Shown: positions 3,888 to 34,782, numbered from the stretch's first letter. The stretch is 57,188 nt of DNA from a virus (IMGVR_UViG_2657245570_000014); one strand, 5' to 3'. Notes: a model not told the origin generated them from the sequence alone. Numbers and translations are program-made.

Positions 3888-5560
3888 TAAACTGCCCTCA
3901 CAATGTAATTAAGTGCAATGCTACGGGGTCTGACAGTGATACCCTTCGCATACCCGCTTCTGATAGAGGTCAGAATAGTAGCCTGCATACCATTGTCTGA
4001 CATTGCCACGACAGGATCGCTGAATGTTGTCCCGTCCGGCATTTTAAAGCTGCCCTCACGAAGGTCTGTAATGGAATCTTCATTGTTGAATCCCATGCCG
4101 ACTATCCCCGAGGTTCCCGTAGTGTCCTGGTTATAATAATCCAGCATTGCTGTTCTTAACAGCGTTGCCCCTTGTGCGGACAGCAACTTACGTCCTGTAT
4201 CAACTTTGCGCCCGTCGTCCCATCCACGGATAAACTCACCGCGTAAATCGGGAAGACGGAGGGTCGGGTAGACTCTGGCCAGAACAGGATATTGTTCTTT
4301 TGTAAAGGCGCGCCCGTCGCACTTTAACCAGCCTGCTGGCGGTGTGGCGGTGGGCCATGGAACCGGTACACCAACAGGCAATGCAGAGCCTTCCCCCAAA
4401 CCAAGGTAATTGAGGACATCTTTTATACTGCCCTTAGCGATAATAGCGCGACCAATAGCTGTAAGGGTTGCCAGCGCTGCGCGGTCTGCTCCGGTAAAAT
4501 AAGGCAACCGATCTGCTGCAGTGGCAAGTCCTGCCAGAGCAGTGAGCGTGGCATCTGCCGGTTGTTTTCCGTTTGCCAGATCGTATGCAGCCTTGACCGC
4601 TTTCGGTGTGGCGGCCAGTATTTCAGACGTGCTGTTGATAGCACTGCTCAGTTGTACGGTGCCTTTTGCCGTCAGCGAGGCAGCAGGCACTCCCGTTATC
4701 TGACTCCACGGGTGAGTGTGGCTGACGGGCGCCTTGCCGGCTGCAAGGTCGTATGCAGCCTTGACCGCCTTCGGCGTGGCAGCCTCAATTTCTGATTGAC
4801 TGTCCGTGGCGCTGCTCAGTTGTACGGTGCCTTTTGCCGTCAGTGAAGCCGCAGGCACTCCCGTTATCTGACTCCACGGGTGAGTGTGGCTGGCAGGCGC
4901 CTTGCCGGCTGCCAGGTCGTATGCAGCCTTGACCGCTTTCGGTGTGGCGGCCAGTATTTCAGACGTGCTGTTGATGGCACTGCTCAGTTGTACGGTGCCT
5001 TTTGCCGTCAGCGAGGCAGCTGGCACTCCCGTTATCTGACTCCACGGGTGAGTGTGGCTGACGGGCGCCTTGCCGGCTGCAAGGTCGTATGCAGCCTTGA
5101 CCGCCTTCGGCGTGGCAGCCTCAATTTCTGATTGACTGTCCGTGGCGCTGCTCAGTTGTACGGTGCCTTTTGCCGTCAGTGAAGCCGCAGGCACTCCCGT
5201 TATCTGACTCCACGGGTGAGTGTGGCTGGCAGGCGCCTTGCCGGCTGCCAGGTCGTATGCAGCCTTGACCGCTTTTGGTGTGGCGGCCAGCGTTTCAGAG
5301 GTGCTGTTGGTGGCACTGCTCAGTTGGGTGAACCCCTTAGCTGTCAGTGTCGCGTCCGGGTGGTTACGGGAACGTACGTGTTCAGCCAGTGACTGTGCGG
5401 CTTCCTCCGTTTTCTTCTTCAGCCATTTCGTCCTGTTTGCCAGTTGCCGGGGGGCTCGATTTGATATCCCGTCTGCACCACCCAGAACCGGATCTGATGT
5501 CTCCAGTTGATAGATATTTTCTTCCCACTTTTCTGTTTCATTCAGGTTTCCCATAATCAA
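3887..5560 (-). CDS. Tail fiber protein (constant N-terminus, tandem repeats, currently expressed C-terminal variant)
   Basis: 557 aa; repeated 56-aa units (SHTHPWSQITGVPAASLTAKGTVQLSS...); C-terminal part shares the cassette leader. Confidence 0.9.
   Translation of the reverse strand: MIMGNLNETEKWEENIYQLETSDPVLGGADGISNRAPRQLANRTKWLKKKTEEAAQSLAEHVRSRNHPDATLTAKGFTQLSSATNSTSETLAATPKAVKAAYDLAAGKAPASHTHPWSQITGVPAASLTAKGTVQLSSATDSQSEIEAATPKAVKAAYDLAAGKAPVSHTHPWSQITGVPAASLTAKGTVQLSSAINSTSEILAATPKAVKAAYDLAAGKAPASHTHPWSQITGVPAASLTAKGTVQLSSATDSQSEIEAATPKAVKAAYDLAAGKAPVSHTHPWSQITGVPAASLTAKGTVQLSSAINSTSEILAATPKAVKAAYDLANGKQPADATLTALAGLATAADRLPYFTGADRAALATLTAIGRAIIAKGSIKDVLNYLGLGEGSALPVGVPVPWPTATPPAGWLKCDGRAFTKEQYPVLARVYPTLRLPDLRGEFIRGWDDGRKVDTGRKLLSAQGATLLRTAMLDYYNQDTTGTSGIVGMGFNNEDSITDLREGSFKMPDGTTFSDPVVAMSDNGMQATILTSIRSGYAKGITVRPRSIALNYIVRAV
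4389..4413 (-). other. Putative invertase crossover site 3 (inverted relative to sites 1 and 2)
   Basis: Reverse complement reads TCAATTACCTTGGTTTGGGGGAAGG. Confidence 0.5.
4550..5350. repeat. Tandem coding repeats in the tail fiber gene (336-bp period, about 2.5 copies, each made of two 56-aa sub-repeats)
   Basis: Near-identical protein repeats and near-identical antisense ORFs offset by 336 bp (4562.. and 4880..). Confidence 0.85.
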
Positions 5561-20749: not shown

Positions 20750-21571
20750 TTATCCTCTCAGTTCCTGTTGTGCCAGTGGCTGAAGCGTACCCTGATAGCG
20801 GGCCAGGTCGGGACGGTATGCTGCCCCCGGTGCATAAGACCAGCCGACGTCGGTGGTCACCTTCGTGGTGCCGGTATTAAAGGTGGCCACGTTCCGCATT
20901 TCGCCGGTTTTCTCTGAGACCAGTTTCAGTTCCTGGCCCATGGCAGAGCCGGAGCTGATAACCTTCAGGCCACGGGCACGTACATCCGCCGCACTCAGGG
21001 CAATCACACTACAGCGGCAGCGCCAGCCGTTCGGCGGGTAAAATGCCTGCCAGAACGGGTCATCCCAGCGCAGCACCAGACCATGCAGCGCCAGATGGCT
21101 CCTGCGGGTATGGCTGTCGTTGATGCCGGTATACATCCAGTACGGCCTGTCGTCGACGTTTTCCATCTGTTCCGCCCAACGACCGGCGCTGTAGAGTACG
21201 GACATATTGGTGCGAAAGATGGTATCGAGCCGCCACGGACTGCCCTGCTGAATGGTGACCGGCTTACCCGTTACCGGGTCAGTCGTGTCACGTGGTCCCC
21301 ACCATCCCTTACGCTTCAGCACCGGCTCCAGCTCCTGCCGGAACCAGCGATCGGTTTTTCCTTCATCGACAGCCTGCTGCAGTGCCCCGCGAATATCTTC
21401 CAGGATATCCAGGCGGGTCACTTTAGCAACGGTAAAGGCGCGGGCATGGGCCTCCTGCCACATTTCTTCCCAGTCCCAGGTAATCTGATACCCTTTGGAC
21501 TTCAGGTAACTGACTGCCCGCTTCGGGGGAAGCGTCATGCAGTACGCCAGTTCAGCCGTTGTCACGCTCAT
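20750..21571 (-). CDS. Minor head protein (Mu F-like)
   Basis: Downstream of portal; start taken at internal Met overlapping the portal 3-prime end (ORF extends to 21598). Confidence 0.75.
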   Translation of the reverse strand: MSVTTAELAYCMTLPPKRAVSYLKSKGYQITWDWEEMWQEAHARAFTVAKVTRLDILEDIRGALQQAVDEGKTDRWFRQELEPVLKRKGWWGPRDTTDPVTGKPVTIQQGSPWRLDTIFRTNMSVLYSAGRWAEQMENVDDRPYWMYTGINDSHTRRSHLALHGLVLRWDDPFWQAFYPPNGWRCRCSVIALSAADVRARGLKVISSGSAMGQELKLVSEKTGEMRNVATFNTGTTKVTTDVGWSYAPGAAYRPDLARYQGTLQPLAQQELRG

Positions 21572-23048
21572 GCAGACGTCCCCGGATATTTGCCACAAAG
21601 AGAATACGGGCCAGCCGTTCCTGCAGATCGTCCGTGTTCATCTGAGGGTAGAGCTCCGCCAGTTCGCCCAGCAGCTCAGTCGGGTTAACCCCGTTTTCGA
21701 CCCGCTTAAACAGAGGTGCCAGGACGGGTTCCAGCGTGCCATTTAACACACCTCCGTTCATCAGAATGTCCAGCGCGTCGTCAAGCTGCTGCTGAGCCTG
21801 AATATCGGCATCAATCGCCTCGGCAAATGACAGCGGCAGCATGTTATTCTGGCGTTCCGACGGTGATGTCTCGTCAATATCGCCGTCCTGCAGTTGGTAC
21901 TCACGCTTAAAGTATTGCGGGGTCAGACGCAGACCCGCCCGGGTGAGTTTTTCGTCGCGGGTGGCGCGGGTGTCATCAATGGTCTCCTGTTCCCACATGG
22001 CCCAGACCGGACACGGCACATCGCCGAAGTTCAGGGTGACCACCGTTCTGATAACCTGATTCACTGCTGCCTGAATGATGTCCGCATCCGCATCGCGGAT
22101 ATCAGCCGTTACCTCCAGCCCGGCCTGTGCAGAGGCCTTGTTACTGTTCGCTTCCGTGGTCTGATTCTGACCAAGTAATGCAATGGAGATCTCACTGCGT
22201 GACAGTGTGATCAGCTCGCGGAATACCTCGCTGCTGTCCGCCTTACCATCCGCGGCTTTGAGTTCGATGCTGCTGTCATCGGGGATGGTGGCCACCGCGT
22301 CCTCCACCATCTGCTCCATGGAGTCCAGCAGTTTTTCAATCTCTGCATCATTTGCACCCCTCGGGTGCTTACCGATCACCCACGGGGAGCCAAACTTTTC
22401 GGCAAAGCGGAGCCAGAATTTCATCCCGCCTTTCTTGAAGGCGACCGGCCAGAAGCACATGGACAGGTCCGGGAAACCGTAAGGATTGTCATACGAGGCA
22501 TCCTGTGCCGGCACCACGAATTTTGACGGTGACAGCAGCTCACCCTCCACACCCGCATCACGCGCCCGGAAGCGCAGGCAGTTGTCCGTATCAAACTGAA
22601 ACCACTCAGGCGGTTTGCCGACAATATCCGTCACTGCCCACGCCCTGACCGAACGGCCCCACATGATTTCACAGGGCTGATACCCGTAGAGCACGGCATC
22701 ACTCATCTCACCGATGATGCGGGACAGATCCAGATCGTCGAGCATGTCGCGGATGAAACGGAAGACCCGGGCAGAAGCGTGACCGCGCTCCAGTCCACGC
22801 TCCAGTGATTTGAGCGCTGCTTTACGTCTGCGGATACAGCCCCCAACCAGCGGGTCGGTGCGCAGTTCGCGGTAGATACGGATATCCCGTCCCTGAGCCT
22901 TGAGAATGGGATCAGGATTGGGCAGATACATGCCCAGTCCGTAAAAGTCGATCGCGCGGCTGCGGGAGGCAATCTGCGCGGTCAGTGATTTCTGAGGCTC
23001 AGAAAAAGCAACAAATTCATCGGGTGAAACCCAGATACCCCTCGCCAT
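21552..23048 (-). CDS. Portal protein (Mu H-like)
   Basis: 498 aa directly downstream of the large terminase gene. Confidence 0.85.
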   Translation of the reverse strand: MARGIWVSPDEFVAFSEPQKSLTAQIASRSRAIDFYGLGMYLPNPDPILKAQGRDIRIYRELRTDPLVGGCIRRRKAALKSLERGLERGHASARVFRFIRDMLDDLDLSRIIGEMSDAVLYGYQPCEIMWGRSVRAWAVTDIVGKPPEWFQFDTDNCLRFRARDAGVEGELLSPSKFVVPAQDASYDNPYGFPDLSMCFWPVAFKKGGMKFWLRFAEKFGSPWVIGKHPRGANDAEIEKLLDSMEQMVEDAVATIPDDSSIELKAADGKADSSEVFRELITLSRSEISIALLGQNQTTEANSNKASAQAGLEVTADIRDADADIIQAAVNQVIRTVVTLNFGDVPCPVWAMWEQETIDDTRATRDEKLTRAGLRLTPQYFKREYQLQDGDIDETSPSERQNNMLPLSFAEAIDADIQAQQQLDDALDILMNGGVLNGTLEPVLAPLFKRVENGVNPTELLGELAELYPQMNTDDLQERLARILFVANIRGRLHERDNG

Positions 23049-24643
23049 CAGAATCCCTCCAGCATACGGGCCGCCTGACGACGACGGCGTGAGCTTGCCT
23101 TCACCGGCCCTTTGTTAATTTCACGGCTGGCGAAATACGCCAGCGCCAGTGCGATGGCTGAATCCCCGTGGCGTTTACCACCGTCAGCCTTTGCTTTTGA
23201 GCGTTGCTCCGGTACGCGGGGGACACCGTTCACCACCTGAACGGCCCGCAGGTCATCCAGTGTGTCTTCATCCTTTGGTAAGTCCACCAGGTTACCGTCT
23301 TCCAGTGCAGCTTTGACCGGAGGCATATGCTCCCGGTACCAGCCTTCGGTTGGCATCACCTGCTGAACCCGGCCGGAGCCGTAGCGCTGCATGGCGTATT
23401 CAGCCAGATAGGCACCATTACCACGGGCATCAAACGCTGCACCCAGCAGACCGGGCAGGCCATCCATCAGATACCAGGTGATTTGCTCCTGCTGTCTGAA
23501 CGGCACGTTACGCAGCTCCAGTACGAATGGCACGCGTCGTACCAGGTTCTTCTCCTGCAGCAGGGGATAGTCCACCGACAAATCACCGCTACGGCCAAAG
23601 TCGCGCCCCAGGAAAGAGCGGGCATCAGTGGGGAGTGCCTCCAGCAAGGGTTTCAGATACTCATCAAGCCAGTCCTGCGTCTCGCGGAAGCGAACCTCAT
23701 CAGACAGCAGTTCATAACCTTCCTTGCAGGTCAGACGCAATACCGGCGTATCAGCGGACATGCGGGACTCTATCAGGGCACGGGACAGCCAGGCACCGCC
23801 ACCGTTGGCCGGAATACAGTCAAGCTCTTCGGATGCGCCGGCACCGTAGAATTTGTACACCGATGCCATCCAGGCCTGCTCGGATGCCTCCGACCATTCC
23901 TTCCCGGTGCGCAGACAGACGCGCCGGAACAGCCCCTCAGATACGGCTTCCCGGAAAGTGATGCGATGTATGCTGCCTCCCTGACGTCCGGCACGGATAT
24001 CCCCGATAAGCGTATTGAACGGATTGTCGTCACCGTCATGGGTGGAGATAACGCGTACCTTTCCCCCCCAGATAAGCATCGCCAGCGCCGCTTTCAGCAG
24101 TTCGTCCAGTTGCTCATGGAACGCCGCTTCGTCGATAACAATAATACCCTGACGGCCACGCAGGTTAGACGGGCGGCTGGAGAGCGCAACAATACGAAAG
24201 CCGGAGTCAGGAAATTTGATGGTGTAAGTCCTGATGTGTTTGTCGTCGTCGTCCTCTTCCCAGAATCCTTCTTCAATTTCACTGGCCGCATAGTTGAATG
24301 CCCGTGCCCACATCGCACACGCCTGAATGTATTCGACGGTCATGTCCTGGTTATAAGCGATGTAATACACATTCATCCCGCCTGCTGGCGCAGAAGAGGC
24401 GGCGGTCAGTACGTTATCGGATGCCTCAGCCCATGTAATACCGGTACGACGGCTCTTTTCTATCACCTTAAGCGGAGAGGTGTCTGCCACCCAGCGCTGC
24501 TGGTAAGGCAACAGAACGGGAGGAGCATCCAGCGCCGAGGTATCAGGCAAAACGGGAGCAAGGTTATTCCTCCCGTCCATGGGACTCATCCCTTCGGGGC
24601 CACCGCCAGCGGCGTTTAAAATCACTCCGGATGATTTTGTCAT
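23048..24643 (-). CDS. Terminase large subunit
   Basis: 531 aa; terminase-portal order. Confidence 0.85.
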   Translation of the reverse strand: MTKSSGVILNAAGGGPEGMSPMDGRNNLAPVLPDTSALDAPPVLLPYQQRWVADTSPLKVIEKSRRTGITWAEASDNVLTAASSAPAGGMNVYYIAYNQDMTVEYIQACAMWARAFNYAASEIEEGFWEEDDDDKHIRTYTIKFPDSGFRIVALSSRPSNLRGRQGIIVIDEAAFHEQLDELLKAALAMLIWGGKVRVISTHDGDDNPFNTLIGDIRAGRQGGSIHRITFREAVSEGLFRRVCLRTGKEWSEASEQAWMASVYKFYGAGASEELDCIPANGGGAWLSRALIESRMSADTPVLRLTCKEGYELLSDEVRFRETQDWLDEYLKPLLEALPTDARSFLGRDFGRSGDLSVDYPLLQEKNLVRRVPFVLELRNVPFRQQEQITWYLMDGLPGLLGAAFDARGNGAYLAEYAMQRYGSGRVQQVMPTEGWYREHMPPVKAALEDGNLVDLPKDEDTLDDLRAVQVVNGVPRVPEQRSKAKADGGKRHGDSAIALALAYFASREINKGPVKASSRRRRQAARMLEGF

Positions 24644-25185
24644 GTGGCAATCCCCAGAATCTCGCGACGAAGCGCCTGTACTGCGTCGCTTGACAGTCCC
24701 CCCTTACGGGCAATTTTCTCGGCGTTGCTGGCTGCCTGCTGCGCTCTGGCCCGTACTTCAGACTGGAACTTTTTGAGGTTGACGGACGCGCGGGACAGCG
24801 TAGCCACATTCTTCGCCACCTTCGACAGCAGGGCCACGCGTTCTTTAGGATCGACTTCGCCTTCTTCCGCCTCCTGCAACTGGACAATACTCTCGAACAG
24901 CTCGGTCTGAATAAGGGCTATCACAGCCTCCGAACGCGCATCCTGATCGTCTGCTGCGCCTTCGGTCAGCATGCGGGCCGCTTCTGTTGCCGCACGGATA
25001 GCACCATAGCGGCGCTCAATCTTCTGTCCATAGCGATGGATAGCGGATTTGCTGATGACGTACCCCCGCTCACGCAGCAGGGACTCCAGCTCGTTATACC
25101 CGCTGAAGCCGGATTCAGTCAGCGCCCGTTCAAGCCAGCGGCGCACATCTTCCGGCAGCTTTTCTATTGTGCTGCGTCTGGCCAT
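24640..25185 (-). CDS. Terminase small subunit (Mu gp27-like)
   Basis: 181 aa; ATG with GGAG Shine-Dalgarno; overlaps the large terminase start. Confidence 0.75.
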   Translation of the reverse strand: MARRSTIEKLPEDVRRWLERALTESGFSGYNELESLLRERGYVISKSAIHRYGQKIERRYGAIRAATEAARMLTEGAADDQDARSEAVIALIQTELFESIVQLQEAEEGEVDPKERVALLSKVAKNVATLSRASVNLKKFQSEVRARAQQAASNAEKIARKGGLSSDAVQALRREILGIAT

Positions 25186-25496
25186 TATTCACTCCAGTAC
25201 TTTTCCGGGCGGGCAATACCCGGACCACATTCCACGGTGTATTCCACCAGGTCTACGCCGAGGCGGGTCAGGTCAGCAAACCAGTCGCCAGAAGGTTTTT
25301 TCTCCAGATCAACCATTTTACGGTCAGCCAGATAATCCAGTTCGCGGCGCAGTTCCAGCGGTGTGGTGTCCGGGTAGATGGCACGGGACACATCCAGCAG
25401 CAGCGTCTCGCTGGCGGTGTAAGGGCGGGTCTTGTTCAGGGCAACCAGCAGACTCCAGCGCAGGGATTCGCGGCGTACCCGGGTAATATCGACCAT
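25185..25496 (-). CDS. Hypothetical protein (Mu gp26 position)
   Basis: 103 aa; stop overlaps the small terminase ATG (TAATG). Confidence 0.55.
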   Translation of the reverse strand: MVDITRVRRESLRWSLLVALNKTRPYTASETLLLDVSRAIYPDTTPLELRRELDYLADRKMVDLEKKPSGDWFADLTRLGVDLVEYTVECGPGIARPEKYWSE

Positions 25497-25822
25497 TATT
25501 GACCTCCGGTATTGCGGTACTGCTGTACCACTTCCAGTTTGTTATAAAGCGCGTCCAGTTTGGCCTCAATGACTGTCTGGCCACGGATATAATCCTCTCG
25601 ACGGACATAATTCAGCGGTAAATCCGCTTTAAATCGCATAAATTCTTTTTCCAGCTCGCCCCAGTTGGAGGCGGATTGTTGCAGGGCCTGTTCAAGGGAG
25701 GCGAATCGTGCCGCCTGGCGTTCTTCTGTTTTACTGAACAACCATTTGGCGAGCCCTCCCACAAACCCCATGAAGGTGAGCAGAAAACTCACCACCGTCC
25801 AGAATTCAACCTGCAGTGTCAT
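25496..25822 (-). CDS. Small membrane protein with coiled-coil (Mu gp25 position)
   Basis: 108 aa; N-terminal transmembrane segment FWTVVSFLLTFMGFVGGLAKWLF. Confidence 0.55.
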   Translation of the reverse strand: MTLQVEFWTVVSFLLTFMGFVGGLAKWLFSKTEERQAARFASLEQALQQSASNWGELEKEFMRFKADLPLNYVRREDYIRGQTVIEAKLDALYNKLEVVQQYRNTGGQ

Positions 25823-26469
25823 TTCTGTAATCCTTCCCGTTCATCCAGTAACGCGTTTATCTGGTTCCGCCAGCGACGACATTGTCCTGCGTTGTCGATG
25901 ATGTTGGCGAGAACGTCACGCTGGGAGACACCCGAATCGCGTAACCGGGTGTCAGTGGTTTCAGGTTGCCCGGTCGCTGTGCCAGAGCGGGTGCCAGCGG
26001 CGGCAACTGAGTCTGAATGACCGGTGTCGACGGATGCGTTGTCATATCCGAGTGCGGCGTTGTACTGGCGCACGAAACCGCGAGTAAACACGCACTCAAT
26101 GGGATGGCTCTTACCTTTTTCATCAATCCAGCGCTGTGTGACATCGTTAATTTGCCCCTGTAGTTGTTTATTCCGGCTCTCCAGTTGAGCAATCTGCTCA
26201 AGATAACCGGCTTCAGCCCGCTGCCCGGCGGCCACCTGCTCCTGATACCGTCTGGCCCAGGCCCGCAGCGCAGCATTCTCAAGCGTTGCCTGCTCCGTTT
26301 TGTACGCGTCAAATGCTGACTGCAACTGACTGAGCGCGGTATCACCGTCACGCTTTGCAGAGTCATGACCACTTCTGTATCCCATGGCATACAGGCCGAC
26401 CAGAAAGGCATTGATAAGAATGGCCAGCAGAATGCCGCGCCACGGCAGCTTTTTAACCAGATGCCACAC
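25819..26469 (-). CDS. i-spanin (Rz-like)
   Basis: N-terminal transmembrane segment followed by a long coiled-coil periplasmic domain; GTG start with GGGGAGG Shine-Dalgarno overlapping the endolysin 3-prime end. Confidence 0.7.
   Translation of the reverse strand: MWHLVKKLPWRGILLAILINAFLVGLYAMGYRSGHDSAKRDGDTALSQLQSAFDAYKTEQATLENAALRAWARRYQEQVAAGQRAEAGYLEQIAQLESRNKQLQGQINDVTQRWIDEKGKSHPIECVFTRGFVRQYNAALGYDNASVDTGHSDSVAAAGTRSGTATGQPETTDTRLRDSGVSQRDVLANIIDNAGQCRRWRNQINALLDEREGLQK
25857..26123 (-). CDS. o-spanin (Rz1-like), nested in the +1 frame of the i-spanin gene
   Basis: MKKVRAIPLSACLLAVSC lipoprotein-like signal followed by a Pro-rich segment (LPPLAPALAQRPGNLKPLTPG); fully embedded in the Rz-like gene. 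Confidence 0.65.
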   Translation of the reverse strand: MKKVRAIPLSACLLAVSCASTTPHSDMTTHPSTPVIQTQLPPLAPALAQRPGNLKPLTPGYAIRVSPSVTFSPTSSTTQDNVVAGGTR

Positions 26470-27193
26470 AACTGCTGCCTCCCCATGTGAGATATCGCGG
26501 TGCCAGTTCGCGCAGGATGCGCTGCGGATAATGGCGGTTCTCCCGCCAGCTGGCCGCATTGCGTCCGGCATTCACCGTGGCGACATGTCCGAACCAGCGG
26601 GTGCTGTCCAGACCTTTCTGTGATGCAAGCCGCCTGTCCCGTTGTACCCAGCCCAGACCACCGTTATAGCCCGACAGTGTCATGGCCATACGCTCGCAGT
26701 CACTGGCGGCGCTGACACGCTGCCACAGCCAGCGGTCATAGCTGACCAGCGCCCGGATAGCCCATGCCGGATTAAACGGCTCACGACTGCTCAGCATCGG
26801 TATCAACTGGCTTATCCAGTCGGCAGTGGCAGGCATGAACTGCGCCAGTCCCTGAGCGCCAGCCGGCGAGATCGCATCAGGTCGCCAGCCGCTTTCCTGA
26901 TGCAGTTGCGCGGCGAAATCGGCCACCGGCGCAGACAGTCCCCATTCAAGCCGGGCATTACGGATCACATCATCGCGATACTGCAGCGCAGCCTGCGGAG
27001 GTTGTGCTGCGCATGCCTGGCTAAAAAAGCCGCCACACCAGAGCAACATTGCGACAAAGAATACCCATGCCATATGAACCAGAAAGGTCCCGGCGCGGAC
27101 TGACAGGCGTTCGGTTCTGATGAAGACCCGAAAGGCTTCGAAAGCCAGTTTCAGGGACATGCATACAATCCAGGTGATCTGCGGCCAGTTCAT
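26453..27193 (-). CDS. Endolysin, lytic transglycosylase (SLT) type with a hydrophobic N-terminal signal-anchor
   Basis: SLT-like region (EWGLSAPVADFAAQLHQESGW...); N-terminal hydrophobic stretch MAWVFFVAMLLWCGGFF; ATG 3 nt after the holin stop. Confidence 0.8.
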   Translation of the reverse strand: MNWPQITWIVCMSLKLAFEAFRVFIRTERLSVRAGTFLVHMAWVFFVAMLLWCGGFFSQACAAQPPQAALQYRDDVIRNARLEWGLSAPVADFAAQLHQESGWRPDAISPAGAQGLAQFMPATADWISQLIPMLSSREPFNPAWAIRALVSYDRWLWQRVSAASDCERMAMTLSGYNGGLGWVQRDRRLASQKGLDSTRWFGHVATVNAGRNAASWRENRHYPQRILRELAPRYLTWGGSSCVASG

Positions 27194-27195
27194 GA

Positions 27196-27546
27196 TTAAA
27201 GCCCCATCGCAACAGCCAGGCAGACCGCTGCAACAATCAGTGCACGGCGGATTAACGCAGCAGAAAACACCAGGTGAAGGCCGGTCTGTACCGGGAAACG
27301 CCCTTCAGCCATCAGCCTGTCGTCATGTTTCAGGTACTGACCGGGACGGGCTTTGGGGAAGAGCGAACGGTCAAGCCAGTAACCCAGCACTGCTGCCAGC
27401 GTGATGAGTGCCAGCTTGTAGATCACAACAGGCAGCTGCTGTGGTGAGACCAGAGCGATGGTGCCCAGCAACAGCACTGAGGTCAGCAGCCAGCCGCTGA
27501 GGCGAGGTTTTTTAACAGGGGGAATGAATTTTTTCAGGTTTTTCAT
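27196..27546 (-). CDS. Putative holin (three predicted transmembrane segments)
   Basis: 117 aa; AAGGAG Shine-Dalgarno 6 nt upstream of ATG; first gene of the late operon. Confidence 0.65.
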   Translation of the reverse strand: MKNLKKFIPPVKKPRLSGWLLTSVLLLGTIALVSPQQLPVVIYKLALITLAAVLGYWLDRSLFPKARPGQYLKHDDRLMAEGRFPVQTGLHLVFSAALIRRALIVAAVCLAVAMGL

Positions 27547-27676
27547 GTGTGTCTCCTTATCTGGTGGAGACAGCATCACAAATACAGGGCGCGAAGGATT
27601 TTAAAGCGCGTTAAGAGAGCCGGGGATACGGGATGTGCAGGATAAACGATGAATTATTCACAGAGGAGAATACGAT

Positions 27677-28153
27677 ATGACGCACACACTGAATCCGGTC
27701 ATCACTGTCACTGTGTCCGGTCCTGTGGGCAGCGGTAAAAGTTACGTACTGGCGCGGATAGAAGAGATGGTGAAACAGGAACTCGGAAACAGCGTCATTG
27801 TCGATGCTGCTGACGTGGAGAATGAGCGCCGTATGAATGGCGAAGATCTGACGACCTGGCAGAAGCCACGGGGTGGCACAGTGATCAGGCTGGAGGAATA
27901 CACGGGACAGGGCCTGTTGTCATACGGCGAGGAGCGTATCTGTCGGACGAATGAGCTGCTGGATGTTATATGCCCCACGGGCCGGCAACCCTGGATACTG
28001 CCCGATGCACTGCATGCCACCATTGCGGCACTGATGACAGTTTACGATCAGGAGCTGCTCATGAAGGAGTTACGTAAACTCACCGGTCAGCCAACAGAAT
28101 GTTGTTCGTCTCCGAAGTACGGCAAACAGGAAAACGCCCCGGATAATCCTTAA
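27677..28153 (+). CDS. Small P-loop protein (Walker A GPVGSGKS near the N-terminus; kinase-like), unknown function
   Basis: 158 aa; GAGGAG Shine-Dalgarno; opposite strand to the late operon. Confidence 0.7.
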   Translation: MTHTLNPVITVTVSGPVGSGKSYVLARIEEMVKQELGNSVIVDAADVENERRMNGEDLTTWQKPRGGTVIRLEEYTGQGLLSYGEERICRTNELLDVICPTGRQPWILPDALHATIAALMTVYDQELLMKELRKLTGQPTECCSSPKYGKQENAPDNP

Positions 28154-28159
28154 GATACC

Positions 28160-28192
28160 TCCTGAACAGAAACAGCCCTGAAGGGCTGCACT
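28160..28192. terminator. Possible bidirectional hairpin terminator between convergent genes
   Basis: CAGCCC tgaa GGGCTG stem-loop flanked by an A-run on one side and a T-rich stretch on the other. Confidence 0.35.
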
Positions 28193-28781
28193 AAAAAAAG
28201 AAGTGTATTATTGCCCAAACAGCTATAACGATGATTCCCAGCCCAAGAGCCGATTCTAACTTATCTTTGGCAGTCATTTTTACTGTTGTAGCGGGCGCAG
28301 GTAAGTCTTGCTGCTGTGGATTTTCTGTTAGTTGTTTACGAGAAGAAACATCGCCCCTGTTAGTTTGCTTCATGTTGATTACAGATGCGTTATGGGCATT
28401 ATCAGCAGCAATTGACTGAAGTTTTACAAAAGTTTTTGAATCTGTTTTAGCCAGAAGTAACCTATTTCCCGTAAACATTGCCTTAAAAGTGATAGTTTTT
28501 TTCGTCTTGTCCGCCGCACCAAGCAAACCTCCAATGACCAACCCTGCACCACCAAAGATTAATCCACCAAGCAAACCTGCGCCTGCCGCCTTACCTATAC
28601 GGCTTTCCTCTTCACTATCCGCAAGTTCAATCGATAAAAGCTCTTCTTTCAGATTTAATACAATATTTTCAGGAAAGCCTTGTTTTGGTTTTTTGGCAAA
28701 CACGATGGTACCGAACCCCATGCTTGCCCACCCTTTAGGAAAACTTCCTGCGATAACCTGAATCCCTGCCATGTTCATCAC
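28191..28781 (-). CDS. Membrane protein with a glycine-zipper segment and C-terminal transmembrane helix, unknown function
   Basis: GAGLLGGLIFGGAGLVIGGLLGAA motif; C-terminal LGLGIIVIAVWAIIHFFF. Confidence 0.6.
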   Translation of the reverse strand: MMNMAGIQVIAGSFPKGWASMGFGTIVFAKKPKQGFPENIVLNLKEELLSIELADSEEESRIGKAAGAGLLGGLIFGGAGLVIGGLLGAADKTKKTITFKAMFTGNRLLLAKTDSKTFVKLQSIAADNAHNASVINMKQTNRGDVSSRKQLTENPQQQDLPAPATTVKMTAKDKLESALGLGIIVIAVWAIIHFFF

Positions 28782-31835: not shown

Positions 31836-33605
31836 ATGAATGCTGCCCTGACTGAACGACTGGTTTATGTCGCCCGCGCGGCACGTGACGCGGGGCATGG
31901 TAAACGCGGTGCAATATACGACGCTGCCTGTGCTGAACTTGGCATGTCCCGCGCCACTCTGCTGCGCAGGCTGAAGGAGGTCTCTGTGACTGATAAACGC
32001 AAAAAACGCGCCGATGCCGGGCGCAGCGCCCTGACCCGCGACGAAGCCGCGCTGATATCTGCCACACTGCGTGAGGCCACCCGCAAGAACGGTAAGCGTC
32101 TCTATTCCATCGCAGATGCAGTGGAAACCCTGCGGGCTAACGGCTTTATCACCGCAGGCAGAACAGATGAAACCACCAGTGAGTTTTTCCCGTTGTCTGA
32201 AGATGCCATCAGCCGTGCTCTGCGTAACTATGGCCTGCACCCGGAACAACTGGATGCCCCTGCACCACATACCGAAGTGGCCAGTCTGCATCCCAATCAT
32301 GTCTGGCAGATTGACGCCTCACTCTGCACGCTTTACTACCTGAGCAATGGACATAAAGGGCTGCAGGTGATGGACAGCGCGAAGTTCTACAAGAACAAGC
32401 CCGCTAACCTTGCCCGTATCGCCAGTGACCGCGTGTGGAGTTACGAGATTACCGACCATGCCAGCGGCTGGATTTACGTTGAGTATGTGACGGGCGCGGA
32501 ATCAGGTGAGAACCTGTGTTCTGTGCTTATCAACGCCATGCAGGAGCGTGGCGGCGCAGACGTGCTGCACGGCGTGCCGAAAATACTCTATCTCGACCCC
32601 GGCTCGGCAAACACCGCGGGTATGACGAAAAACATGTGCCGCTCACTGGGCATCGACCTGATAGCGCACAAGCCGCATAACGCCCGCGCCACCGGACAGG
32701 TGGAAAAGGCGCGTGACATTATCGAACGCAAGCTGGAGCCGGGTCTGAAGTTCCGGCCGGTTCACAGTCTGGAAGAACTCAACGCGCTGGCCGCGAAATG
32801 GCGCAGCCACTTTAACGCCACGGCTGTTCACAGCCGCCACGGTAAAACCCGCACGGATATCTGGCTGAAGATTACTGCTGAGCAGCTGAAAAAAGCGCCT
32901 TCCGTTGAGGTATGTCGTGAACTGGCTGTGGCGGCACCAGAACTCCGCAAAGTCACGCCAAAACTTCGTGTCTCGTTCCGGGGCACTGAATTTGACGTAT
33001 CAACGGTACCGGGCGTACTGGTTGGTGAAAAACTGATGATTACCCGTAACCCATGGCGCAGCGATGTGGCACAGGTGGTTCTGACCGGTGAGGACGGCCA
33101 CGAGACGTTCTTCCTGGTCGAAGAGGTCAGAAAGAACGAGTTTGGCTTTGCTGAAGGCGCGGCGGTATTTGGCGAAAGTTACAAAGCCCTGCCGGAAACC
33201 CCGGCACAGATGGCGGCAAAAGAAACCGAAGCGCTGGTTACCGGTACAGACAACGCCGCAGATGCAGCCGCCGCACGCAAGGCGAAGGCGCTGCCGTTCG
33301 GCGGGCGGCTTGACCCGTATAAACATATCGACGACACCACACTTCCGGCCTATATGCCGAAGCGTGGTCAGGCCTCTGACGTACGCGGGCCGCGCACTGA
33401 ACAACGTCCCATGACTCATGTGGAGGCCGCGAAAGCCCTGCGCGATAAGTTCAGCGCCGACGGCCTTACCTGGACGCCGGAACATTACCGCCAGTTAACG
33501 GCACAGTACCCGGACGGCGTACCGGAAGCCGCACTGGATGAAGTCATGGCCACGCTGACCACACCGGCCCGCAGCAGTGTTATCAGCATTGTTAACGGCA
33601 ACTGA
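31836..33605 (+). CDS. DDE transposase (Mu A-like, integrase-core fold)
   Basis: 589 aa; candidate catalytic residues in HVWQIDASL, LYLDPGSANT and a later Glu; GGAGG Shine-Dalgarno. Confidence 0.85.
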   Translation: MNAALTERLVYVARAARDAGHGKRGAIYDAACAELGMSRATLLRRLKEVSVTDKRKKRADAGRSALTRDEAALISATLREATRKNGKRLYSIADAVETLRANGFITAGRTDETTSEFFPLSEDAISRALRNYGLHPEQLDAPAPHTEVASLHPNHVWQIDASLCTLYYLSNGHKGLQVMDSAKFYKNKPANLARIASDRVWSYEITDHASGWIYVEYVTGAESGENLCSVLINAMQERGGADVLHGVPKILYLDPGSANTAGMTKNMCRSLGIDLIAHKPHNARATGQVEKARDIIERKLEPGLKFRPVHSLEELNALAAKWRSHFNATAVHSRHGKTRTDIWLKITAEQLKKAPSVEVCRELAVAAPELRKVTPKLRVSFRGTEFDVSTVPGVLVGEKLMITRNPWRSDVAQVVLTGEDGHETFFLVEEVRKNEFGFAEGAAVFGESYKALPETPAQMAAKETEALVTGTDNAADAAAARKAKALPFGGRLDPYKHIDDTTLPAYMPKRGQASDVRGPRTEQRPMTHVEAAKALRDKFSADGLTWTPEHYRQLTAQYPDGVPEAALDEVMATLTTPARSSVISIVNGN

Positions 33606-33615
33606 GGAGGGAAAC

Positions 33616-34782
33616 ATGCTGGTACTGAAGCAGCAACTGAAAGAGGCCCGTATTCCACAGGCGGTGGTGGCGAGAGCTGTCGATGTTTCTGAGGCCACGC
33701 TGGCCCAGATTGTGAATCATAACGCGTGGCCCCGCACCAGCCCCGGAGAAGTGCGCCGGCGTCTTGCGTCCTGGCTGGAAAGTCAGGGGATTGATACAAC
33801 GAAGAGTTTTGATGCTGTACAGGGCGCGGCCACGCCCCGTACAGCGGGTACCACAGATAAAACGAGCCTCAGTGAGGAAGAGAATATGTTACTCAAAAAA
33901 CAGGTGTTATTTCCAGCAACCAAAAAAGCGTTTGGTCTTTTCCGTGACCCGTTCGCCGACGAAGCCATGCAGGGTTCTGATGATGTGTTCACCACCCCGG
34001 ACATTCGCTACGTGCGTGAGGCGCTGTACCAGACAGCCCGTCATGGTGGGTTTATGGCCGTCATCGGTGAGTCCGGTGCGGGTAAATCCACGCTGCGCCG
34101 CGACCTGACTGAACGTATCAACCGCGAGAATGCGCCGGTAATTGTTATCGAGCCATACATCATCGCTATGGAAGACAACGATGTGAAAGGGAAAACCCTG
34201 AAGGCAGCAGCTATTGCCGAAGCCATTATCAGTACCATCGCACCACTGGAAAGCATCAGACGCAGTCAGGACGCCCGTTTTCGCCAGTTGCATCGCGTCC
34301 TGAAAGACAGCAGCCAGGCGGGGTTCAGCCACGTTCTGGTGATTGAGGAGGCCCACAGTCTGCCCATTCCGACACTGAAACACCTCAAACGCTTTTTTGA
34401 GCTGGAGTCCGGTTTCAAAAAACTGCTGTCCATCGTGCTGATTGGCCAGCCGGAACTGGCGACAAAACTGTCTGAACGCAATATGGAAGTCCGTGAAGTC
34501 GTTCAGCGCTGTGAGGTGGTCGAACTTCTGCCTCTGGACAATAACCTTGAAGAATTTCTGACGTTCAAACTGCAACGGGCCGGTAAACAGCTGACGGACA
34601 TTATGGACGCCGGTGCAGTGGATGCCATACGTGCCCGCCTGAGCAATCCGGGAAGTCACCGTAAAAATATGGTCAGCCTGCTGTATCCGCTGGCCGTCAG
34701 TAACCTGGTAATAGCCGCCATGAATCTGGCCGCTGAAATCGGGGTTCCACAGGTCAACGCTGACGTTGTCAAAGGGGTTTAA
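33616..34782 (+). CDS. Transposition ATPase (Mu B-like, AAA+)
   Basis: Walker A GESGAGKST and Walker B-like VLVIEEAH; directly downstream of the transposase with GAGGAGGG Shine-Dalgarno. Confidence 0.85.
   Translation: MLVLKQQLKEARIPQAVVARAVDVSEATLAQIVNHNAWPRTSPGEVRRRLASWLESQGIDTTKSFDAVQGAATPRTAGTTDKTSLSEEENMLLKKQVLFPATKKAFGLFRDPFADEAMQGSDDVFTTPDIRYVREALYQTARHGGFMAVIGESGAGKSTLRRDLTERINRENAPVIVIEPYIIAMEDNDVKGKTLKAAAIAEAIISTIAPLESIRRSQDARFRQLHRVLKDSSQAGFSHVLVIEEAHSLPIPTLKHLKRFFELESGFKKLLSIVLIGQPELATKLSERNMEVREVVQRCEVVELLPLDNNLEEFLTFKLQRAGKQLTDIMDAGAVDAIRARLSNPGSHRKNMVSLLYPLAVSNLVIAAMNLAAEIGVPQVNADVVKGV

Follow-up and report, generated by a model that had tools for sequence, protein, structure and literature searches.

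Lysis cassettes of the type analysed here were described with BcepMu, in which the holin gene gp21 is followed by gp22 (SLT endolysin), gp23 (Rz), gp24 (embedded Rz1), gp25 (inner-membrane protein), gp26 and TerS. The spanins of BcepMu and phiE255, and those of B3, JBD25, JBD18 and JBD67, have already been catalogued as embedded spanin families, and an embedded o-spanin is typically placed from 0.4-0.5 to 0.9-1 of the length (L) of its i-spanin (Kongari et al. 2018, PMC6139136). For KP12, whose cassette was termed 'T1-like', an i-spanin-like spanin without a partner was reported, and an endolysin that is a close homologue of the one studied here was assigned two predicted domains, the N-terminal 60 residues being unreliable (PMC9902359). 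Here we analyse the lysis cassette of IMGVR_UViG_2657245570_000014, a viral stretch of 57,188 nucleotides (the window, as a whole), whose endolysin carries a small membrane module fused to its catalytic domain. As a lysis cassette the locus is routine, since its type is known and so are the embedded spanins that occur in BcepMu and in the B3/JBD phages, and the fused phrog_5479-SLT endolysin is a modest variant of it, widespread in Enterobacterales prophages.

A preliminary description, made from the sequence alone, had read positions 25819-27546 as a cassette consisting of a holin, a transglycosylase endolysin with a hydrophobic N-terminus and a nested spanin pair. This span proved exact, with all four genes present within it and every cassette gene on the minus strand (Table 1), and the composition was borne out by matches to PF13272, PF01464 and phrog_1403. 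By homology and gene order this is a Bcepmuvirus-type lysis cassette: six proteins are homologous to those of BcepMu and stand in the same order, with identities of 52% for the holin, 61% for the SLT domain (residues 62-238), 27% for Rz, 35% for Rz1 (E=4e-11 against BcepMu gp24), 49% for gp25 and 57% for gp26. The spacing is shared as well. The holin and endolysin genes of the window meet as TAA-TC-ATG, the endolysin starting at the third base past the holin stop (2 nt between), which agrees with the 3 nt given previously, and BcepMu gp22 also starts 2 nt past its holin stop.

The holin gene is preceded by an AAGGAG Shine-Dalgarno sequence 6 nt before its ATG, and its product matches PF13272 (Holin_2-3) with 141.8 bits (cutoff 27; E=1.1e-41) and the holin family phrog_1528 with E=5.5e-55. 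Its N-terminus is strongly basic and its hydropathy profile contains three hydrophobic segments (residues 16-34, 40-58 and 92-110), so that the sequence features of the Holin_2-3 class are present: a match to the family hidden Markov model (HMM), small size, three segments and a gene directly upstream of the endolysin. Among 84 related cassettes an upstream holin was found in 83, the 84th locus being cut off at that end. No experimental work on the Holin_2-3 (PF13272) family was found in the literature searched.

The catalytic part of the endolysin is clearly defined. Residues 97-193 match PF01464 (SLT) with 53.8 bits (cutoff 21.3), the protein matches the endolysin family phrog_669 with E=8.8e-69, and in an alignment E100, within the motif HQES, falls on the QES motif of Slt70 from E. 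coli (1sly/1qsa), which identifies it as the catalytic Glu. By the Pfam threshold and the catalytic E-S motif the enzyme is an SLT/GH23 lytic transglycosylase, as had been proposed. E100, C166 and C242 are invariant in 36 members of the endolysin family, and the two Cys residues, both in the catalytic domain, are in keeping with a periplasmic location.

What sets this endolysin apart from BcepMu gp22 is its N-terminus. At 246 aa it is about 43 residues longer than gp22 (203 aa, annotated 'soluble lytic murein transglycosylase'), which has one short signal-like N-terminus (MRVLIAFVVALLGAAAPVA followed by AQVP) where the window protein has a two-helix module. In the AlphaFold2 (AF2) model of the full-length endolysin, which has a mean pLDDT of 65 and was used for this region only, the two N-terminal helices span residues 3-25 and 30-53. 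The hydrophobic N-terminus noted in the preliminary description is therefore present, but as two helices rather than as one anchor. In a large protein database search this long form (~240-250 aa) was the rule in Enterobacterales, occurring in E. coli, Salmonella, Pectobacterium, Dickeya, Serratia, Pantoea, Morganella and Arsenophonus. Its conserved layout consists of M-x-W-P-Q-I, helix 1, a charged loop and helix 2, which ends WLLWCGGFF-SQA-x-A↓A(Q/E)PP.

JBD25 and JBD67, both Pseudomonas phages, have between their holin and SLT genes an additional gene of 52 aa (MGAPQIIWIV...ALVWWGGFFG, then stop), the same position in the gene order that the module occupies between the holin and the SLT domain. 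An end-to-end pairwise alignment of the module with JBD25 gp25 gave z=5.4, which 1 shuffle in 2000 also reached, and an HMM built from 77 enterobacterial modules found both small open reading frames (ORFs) among 2191 ORF segments, with E=3.8e-9 for JBD25 and E=1.1e-7 for JBD67. The phrog_5479 profile (53 positions) matches residues 1-58 of the window endolysin over its positions 1-53 (E=4.5e-4), the KP12 module over the full length (E=3.5e-15) and JBD25 gp25 with E=2.4e-31. From the alignment, the HMM search, the independent phrog_5479 assignment and the shared position we conclude, on sequence grounds, that the enterobacterial endolysin is a fusion of a small phrog_5479-type membrane protein with an SLT domain. 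PHROGs labels phrog_5479 as of unknown function, and neither Pfam nor NCBIfam holds a family for the module, for either spanin or for the gp25-like protein of 108 aa described below. Against Mu gp19, a membrane protein whose gene stands just upstream of those for Mu lysis (locus L005, 1460-1822), the module HMM gave a non-significant E=0.07. The fusion is not described in the literature searched, which did not include the original BcepMu paper; a 2026 preprint on a UPEC endolysin deals with a siphovirus that is unrelated. For KP12, the 'second domain' over which the authors puzzled is accounted for by the fused two-helix module.

The module is retained as a coding sequence. Among the 84 related cassettes it is fused in 47, truly split in 2, absent in 34 and present as a nonsense-mutated copy in 1. 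Across 146 sequence pairs, module codons with a single change comprised 1448 synonymous and 534 nonsynonymous differences (73% synonymous, versus 23% expected), and differences at codon positions 1, 2 and 3 numbered 495, 532 and 1741. Stops are lacking in the module frame; the two alternative frames contain on average 2.65 and 1.2 per module. Within the window lineage, comparison with three related loci revealed 7 synonymous codon changes and 1 nonsynonymous change. The synonymous excess together with the open frame indicates that the fused module is translated, and by these codon statistics it is under purifying selection. A copy of the fused endolysin on a viral contig (locus L036, 3000-3640) was considered as an enterobacterial 'split' arrangement and rejected, since its loop is interrupted by an in-frame TAG (HSF-stop-W) and its SLT domain is truncated; this appears to be a prophage copy in decay.

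The two helices differ in character. Helix 2 (TFLVHMAWVFFVAMLLWCGGFF, residues 36-57) is strongly hydrophobic (mean hydrophobicity 0.79) and abundant in Phe, Trp, Leu, Val and Met, with Gly, Ala, Ser and Thr making up 21%. Helix 1 is amphipathic in the window lineage, carrying K15, E19 and R22, with a hydrophobic moment of 0.48 and a mean hydrophobicity of 0.13. Over residues ~8-45 (27059-27172) the DNA bears no relation to that of the KP12 type, with both module ends conserved, a mosaic replacement that accounts for the amphipathic helix 1 of this E. coli lineage. Compensating frameshifts of the KP12-type sequence were ruled out as its source because the DNA itself differs.

Several features of the module point to a role in export. 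The loop before helix 2 is basic (R26, R29 and R33) and the stretch after the helix is uncharged, so that by the positive-inside rule a periplasmic catalytic domain would be expected. The junction that follows has the pattern of a signal peptidase site: over 104 distinct N-termini, position -3 is Ala in 86, Ser in 9 and Val in 3 (A/S/V in 98), position -1 is Ala in 100 and position +1 is Ala in 101, whereas position -2 varies freely (N, R, H, D, C, S, A and others). In relatives this junction is preceded by other export devices: short textbook signal peptides rich in Leu, Ile and Phe, such as MWLKYIASMIIFVLFPLNA before SEPP and MRHLLITLLVSPMLFSATVCA before DTIP, in some cases lipoprotein-type signals, and also a collapsed version of the module with a single transmembrane domain (TMD) and both ends kept (MNWCQIIGMVLLWCGGLINPVLA before DEPP). 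The endolysin family thus swaps its export device freely between a plain signal peptide, a lipoprotein signal and a fused membrane protein. The most likely reading is that helix 2 serves as a Sec export signal that places the catalytic domain in the periplasm; as for cleavage by signal peptidase I after Ala62, we consider the chances about even.

Some points weigh against export followed by cleavage. Both steps are read from hydropathy, the positive-inside rule and the -3/-1 rule, the AF2 confidence for the full-length protein is low, and the charged residues of the amphipathic helix 1 mean that the topology of the N-terminus may differ from that of most relatives. Moreover, a free, cleaved and active secreted transglycosylase would seem to make a universally kept holin unnecessary, so that some holin-dependent restraint on the exported enzyme must exist. 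A signal-peptide endolysin is known from Oenococcus phage fOg44 (Lys44), to which the KS10 paper (PMC2628397) refers.

The preliminary description had found the N-terminus consistent with a signal-arrest-release (SAR) endolysin, in which an uncleaved anchor holds the enzyme inactive in the inner membrane until pinholin-type depolarisation frees the anchor from the bilayer. This would explain the constant retention of the holin, which is small and encoded directly upstream of the endolysin; the N-terminus of BcepMu gp22 is Ala/Gly-rich; and homologous transglycosylases of Pseudomonas Mu-like siphophages, including JBD25, have been classed as SAR endolysins (Chamblee et al. 2022, PMC9239132). 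SAR domains are, however, single TMDs at the extreme N-terminus, weakly hydrophobic and rich in Gly, Ala, Ser and Thr. Here the N-terminus is a module of ~58 residues with two helices, and since the export helix begins only at about residue 36, the preceding helix and the basic loop would need to cross the membrane on release. The Gly/Ala/Ser/Thr fraction of helix 2 is 0.21, against 0.53 in the SAR domain of P1 Lyz and 0.63 in that of phage 21 R; composition was used for this comparison because a simplified summed Hessa hydrophobicity scale failed to separate SAR domains from true TMDs. The conserved A-x-A site with its freely varying position -2, and the relatives with classical signal peptides at the same junction, also speak against an uncleaved SAR anchor, which we regard as unlikely in this enzyme. 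An exported endolysin that stays uncleaved and anchored by its module in the manner of membrane-bound lytic transglycosylases, becoming effective once the holin, possibly by touching the phrog_5479-like module, alters the state of the membrane, would supply the restraint that a pre-exported enzyme needs. The purifying selection on the module and its retention in 47 of the 84 cassettes are in keeping with such a tether, and the free-standing homologue adjoins the holin gene, which suggests a partnership with the holin. Still, a tether leaves unexplained both the small residues at -3 and -1 beside a variable -2 and the many relatives that use a plain signal peptide without the module, and we give it a rather low probability.

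It could also be asked whether the extension is translated at all. If the true start were M12 or M41, the latter would give a protein of 206 aa with a simple signal peptide, close to the 203 aa of BcepMu gp22; M12 is used in some metagenome gene calls, and the Shine-Dalgarno sequence before ATG 27193 is weak. This we hold to be very improbable, as no stop interrupts the frame from MNWPQI onwards in any of the 47 fused loci, the synonymous excess over the module is strong, a Met equivalent to M41 is absent in most relatives, phrog_5479 matches end to end from residue 1, and ATG 27193 has exactly the spacing from the holin stop that is seen in BcepMu. A more speculative extension of the favoured reading, export by helix 2 with cleavage at the junction, is that the endolysin might be a natural polyprotein, helix 2 doubling as signal peptide, from which enzyme and a small, hitherto unrecognised membrane regulator (an antiholin or holin partner) would be released 1:1, possibly acting with the gp25-like protein; we put this forward tentatively, as rather doubtful. 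If true, a lysis regulator made from a polyprotein would be a new control of pre-exported endolysins beside SAR/pinholin and releasin, and the first 62 residues should be removed when the enzyme is expressed as an antibacterial.

The gp25-like protein, of 108 aa, is encoded next to the spanins. The preliminary description had ended the cassette at 25819. The start of the 108-aa gene overlaps the i-spanin stop (ATGA), and this gene lies downstream in 81 of the 84 related cassettes. With the embedded o-spanin left uncounted it is the second gene downstream of the endolysin, and it probably belongs to the same operon as the cassette. The product, misnamed 'lipoprotein', matches phrog_462 (E=1.6e-36) and has a TMD at residues 7-25 with acidic residues before it and basic ones after; its AF2 model is one long helix (pTM 0.31), too featureless for a fold search. 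A role as a releasin-like protein that controls a membrane-associated endolysin, making a five-part cassette, would be compatible with any of the other models. It is suggested by an architecture like that of Mu gp25, with an N-terminal TMD of N-out/C-in charge pattern and a helical domain of ~80 aa, by the overlapping start and the frequent presence in cassettes, and by the slot between Rz and the gp26-like and small terminase genes, which is occupied in Mu and JBD25 by the DUF2730 releasin and in the otherwise near-identical JBD67 by a gp25-like protein. Two family members are named 'DUF2730' in UniRef, a name to which Pfam gives no backing. Homology to the DUF2730 (PF10805) releasins was rejected at the sequence and profile level: PF10805 did not match the window protein at E<=10 or any of 28 family members at E<=1, and hhalign of the family against a DUF2730 alignment that included Mu gp25 gave a probability of 0.75%. 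The protein may instead belong to the packaging module, since it is swapped together with the neighbouring gp26-type gene, and its co-occurrence with the cassette may merely reflect genome-wide synteny. It therefore resembles Mu gp25 in form and position only, and a releasin-like function is, in our view, a minor possibility.

The exchange just mentioned is visible when JBD25 and JBD67 are compared (loci L006 and L007, about 4300-5000). Their holin, small ORF and SLT genes are near-identical, and downstream of Rz they carry alternative two-gene modules, DUF2730 with a Mu-gp26-type gene in JBD25 and a gp25-like gene with a BcepMu-gp26-type gene in JBD67, so that both genes seem to travel as a pair. 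As a separate observation on these phages, the SLT endolysins JBD25 gp26 (L006, 2875-3504) and JBD67 gp21 (L007, 2875-3504) begin MKRLLTLGLLGLLSAC followed by QPAFA, a canonical lipoprotein signal with an LSAC lipobox, although the literature lists both as SAR-type. Judged by this N-terminus they may, instead of being SAR proteins, be lipoproteins or undergo cleavage after AFA.

The spanin pair corresponds closely to what had been described for it. The i-spanin gene starts at GTG 26469, 8 nt after a GGGGAGG Shine-Dalgarno sequence, and overlaps the 3' end of the endolysin gene by 17 nt; the maximal ORF in its frame, from ATG 26571, has 250 aa. Its product matches the Rz-like spanins of phrog_1403 (E=7.2e-92); a single N-terminal TMD covers residues 13-31, with K6, K7 and R11 in front of it (N-in). 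The o-spanin is encoded in the +1 frame by an ORF that the i-spanin gene contains entirely, at 0.50-0.94 of the i-spanin length, and has 95 aa from ATG 26144, which has an AGGGG Shine-Dalgarno sequence, or 88 aa from ATG 26123. Its N-terminus (MSHSAGLMKKVRAIPLSACLLAVSC followed by ASTTP) comprises a basic KKVR, a hydrophobic stretch of 12 residues and the lipobox LAVSC with Ala at +2, a residue that would direct sorting to the outer membrane in E. coli. The lipoprotein signal was judged by sequence pattern; the lipobox has Ala at -3 rather than Leu, Val or Ile, and a second lipobox-like motif, LSAC, occurs 6 residues earlier. The mature part contains 11 Pro in 71 residues and no Cys except the lipidated one, while the periplasmic part of the i-spanin has Cys126 and Cys197. 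The two features on which the preliminary description had staked its reading, a membrane segment in the endolysin N-terminus and a lipobox Cys in the embedded ORF, are thus both present.

An embedded +1-frame lipoprotein ORF, running from 0.50-0.56 to 0.94-1.0 of the i-spanin length, occurs in five lineages (window, KP12, BcepMu, JBD25 and JBD67). Identity to the window i-spanin is as low as 27-34% in BcepMu, JBD25 and JBD67, and the persistence of the embedded ORF at this divergence is more than would be expected by chance. The pair is a Rz/Rz1-like two-component spanin of embedded architecture, and by analogy with such spanins would act in the final step of lysis. The suspicion that the nested gene is easily overlooked was justified, since it is unannotated in the RefSeq/PGAP, PhiKM and KP12 records. 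The i-spanin itself is labelled 'lipoprotein' in RefSeq (WP_000264664.1; locus L001, 2732-3382) and in PhiKM, though it has no N-terminal Cys or lipobox. For annotation this means that an o-spanin is missing and an i-spanin misnamed in the E. coli RefSeq record of a cassette that ~12% of complete E. coli genomes carry.

The features of the cassette and the hallmark genes of the element are collected in Table 1.

Table 1. Features of the lysis cassette and prophage hallmark genes, in window coordinates.
Feature	Coordinates	Strand	Details
Holin	27196..27546	minus	116 aa, ATG 27546; PF13272, phrog_1528
Endolysin (SLT/GH23 lytic transglycosylase domain with N-terminal membrane module)	26453..27193	minus	246 aa, ATG 27193
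Endolysin two-helix module, residues 1-58	27020..27193	minus	phrog_5479 homology
Junction SQACA↓AQPP, residues 58-66	26996..27022	minus	candidate signal peptidase I site A60-x-A62↓A63
i-spanin (Rz-like)	25819..26469	minus	216 aa, GTG 26469; phrog_1403; start per RefSeq and Shine-Dalgarno
o-spanin (Rz1-like outer-membrane lipoprotein, predicted)	25857..26144 (or 26123)	minus	+1 frame in i-spanin gene
108-aa protein, BcepMu gp25 family	25496..25822	minus	phrog_462; TMD residues 7-25, helical C-terminal domain
Intergenic region 5' of holin	27547..27676	minus	presumed activator-dependent late promoter; holin ribosome-binding site AAGGAG
rve transposase	31836-33605		prophage hallmark
MuB-like ATPase	33577-34782		prophage hallmark
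GemA	37814-38263		prophage hallmark
Mor (Mor-family activator)	38235-38624		prophage hallmark
Mu-type portal	21552-23048		prophage hallmark
Gp27 small terminase	24640-25185		prophage hallmark

With these hallmarks the element is, with high probability, a BcepMu-type (Bcepmuvirus) transposable Mu-like prophage of E. coli, with the cassette in its late operon. Each gene junction from the holin to the small terminase is either overlapping or 2 nt apart, which makes these genes one operon. No sigma-70-type promoter was found when one was sought 5' of the holin and a Mor-family activator is encoded, which is consistent with a Mor-type activator-dependent late promoter. A match to the 2.3 kb region is carried by 638 of 5426 complete E. 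coli genomes, 485 of them with at least 99% identity, and the cassette region is 100% identical across many E. coli chromosomes. Escherichia phage PhiKM, which is classified as Bcepmuvirus, has 99.5% identity to the cassette region of the window.

Between the immunity region and the lysis cassette lies a cargo-like pair of genes: 27677-28153 (plus strand), encoding a P-loop protein of 158 aa (phrog_3787, named 'ABC transporter ATPase' in RefSeq), and 28191-28781 (minus strand), encoding a Gly-rich membrane protein of 196 aa (phrog_12025). In PhiKM, KP12 and BcepMu this slot 5' of the cassette is filled differently. A PADLOC search linked neither gene convincingly to a defence system: the P-loop protein had two marginal matches (E~0.01), the membrane protein none. 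The prophage apparently ends just past the Mor gene, and the inverse autotransporter of 1302 aa encoded by the next large gene (39558-43466, minus strand; intimin/invasin-like, PF11924 with Big_1 repeats) is presumably a host gene.

Built on the observed gene identities, architecture, homologies and junction conservation, and on the families involved and analogy for export, cleavage, holin dependence and spanin function, the explanation of the locus that we consider best, and as a whole highly probable, is the following. The holin would build up in the inner membrane and set the time of lysis. The endolysin would not be held in the cytoplasm, as the basic loop and helix 2 of the module would act as a Sec-type export signal, and signal peptidase I would most likely cut at A-x-A↓A(Q/E)PP, giving a soluble periplasmic enzyme from Ala63 and a membrane peptide of ~62 residues, the counterpart of the protein that has its own gene in Pseudomonas B3-like phages. 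In Lys44 the exported enzyme is activated by holin-driven collapse of the membrane potential, and by analogy we infer that holin triggering (membrane depolarisation) unleashes the pre-exported enzyme here. Once the wall is cut, the i-spanin/o-spanin complex would fuse the inner and outer membranes.

Among known systems, the Pseudomonas B3-like phages JBD25 and JBD67 have homologues of the holin (41% identity), of the SLT domain (60%) and of Rz (31-34%; 34% for the JBD67 Rz), again with an embedded +1-frame o-spanin, and JBD67 has the gp25-like and gp26-like genes as well. The window cassette differs from both in that their 52-aa two-helix protein is its own gene and their endolysin has its own lipobox-like LLSAC signal, and from JBD25 in the DUF2730 protein of the downstream slot. 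As in lambda Rz/Rz1, a type II inner-membrane i-spanin is combined with a Pro-rich lipoprotein o-spanin lying wholly inside its gene in the +1 frame, and the position of the latter matches the typical embedded placement; sequence similarity to the lambda proteins is, however, undetectable, and the window i-spanin belongs to another PHROG (phrog_1403). The Rz1 proteins of BcepMu and the JBD phages also differ from the window o-spanin, whose mature part has only the lipidated Cys. Mu gp25 (the DUF2730, PF10805 releasin) and the 108-aa protein have the same size, architecture and slot downstream of the spanins, but no sequence or profile homology is detectable between them, and Mu has no holin while the window cassette has one.

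With the SAR endolysins P1 Lyz, phage 21 R and Mu gp22 the window enzyme has in common an N-terminal membrane segment and pairing with a small holin or another membrane regulator, and probably also export before lysis. Those enzymes are muramidases with one helix, whereas the window endolysin is an SLT transglycosylase with two, the export helix being strongly hydrophobic instead of Gly/Ala-rich and followed by a conserved signal-peptidase-type site. Lys44 of fOg44 acts in a Gram-positive host, belongs to another enzyme class and has a plain signal peptide without a fused module. On the favoured model it is nevertheless like the window endolysin in its mode of action, with Sec export by a cleavable signal before the holin acts and a holin that would activate the enzyme rather than transport it.

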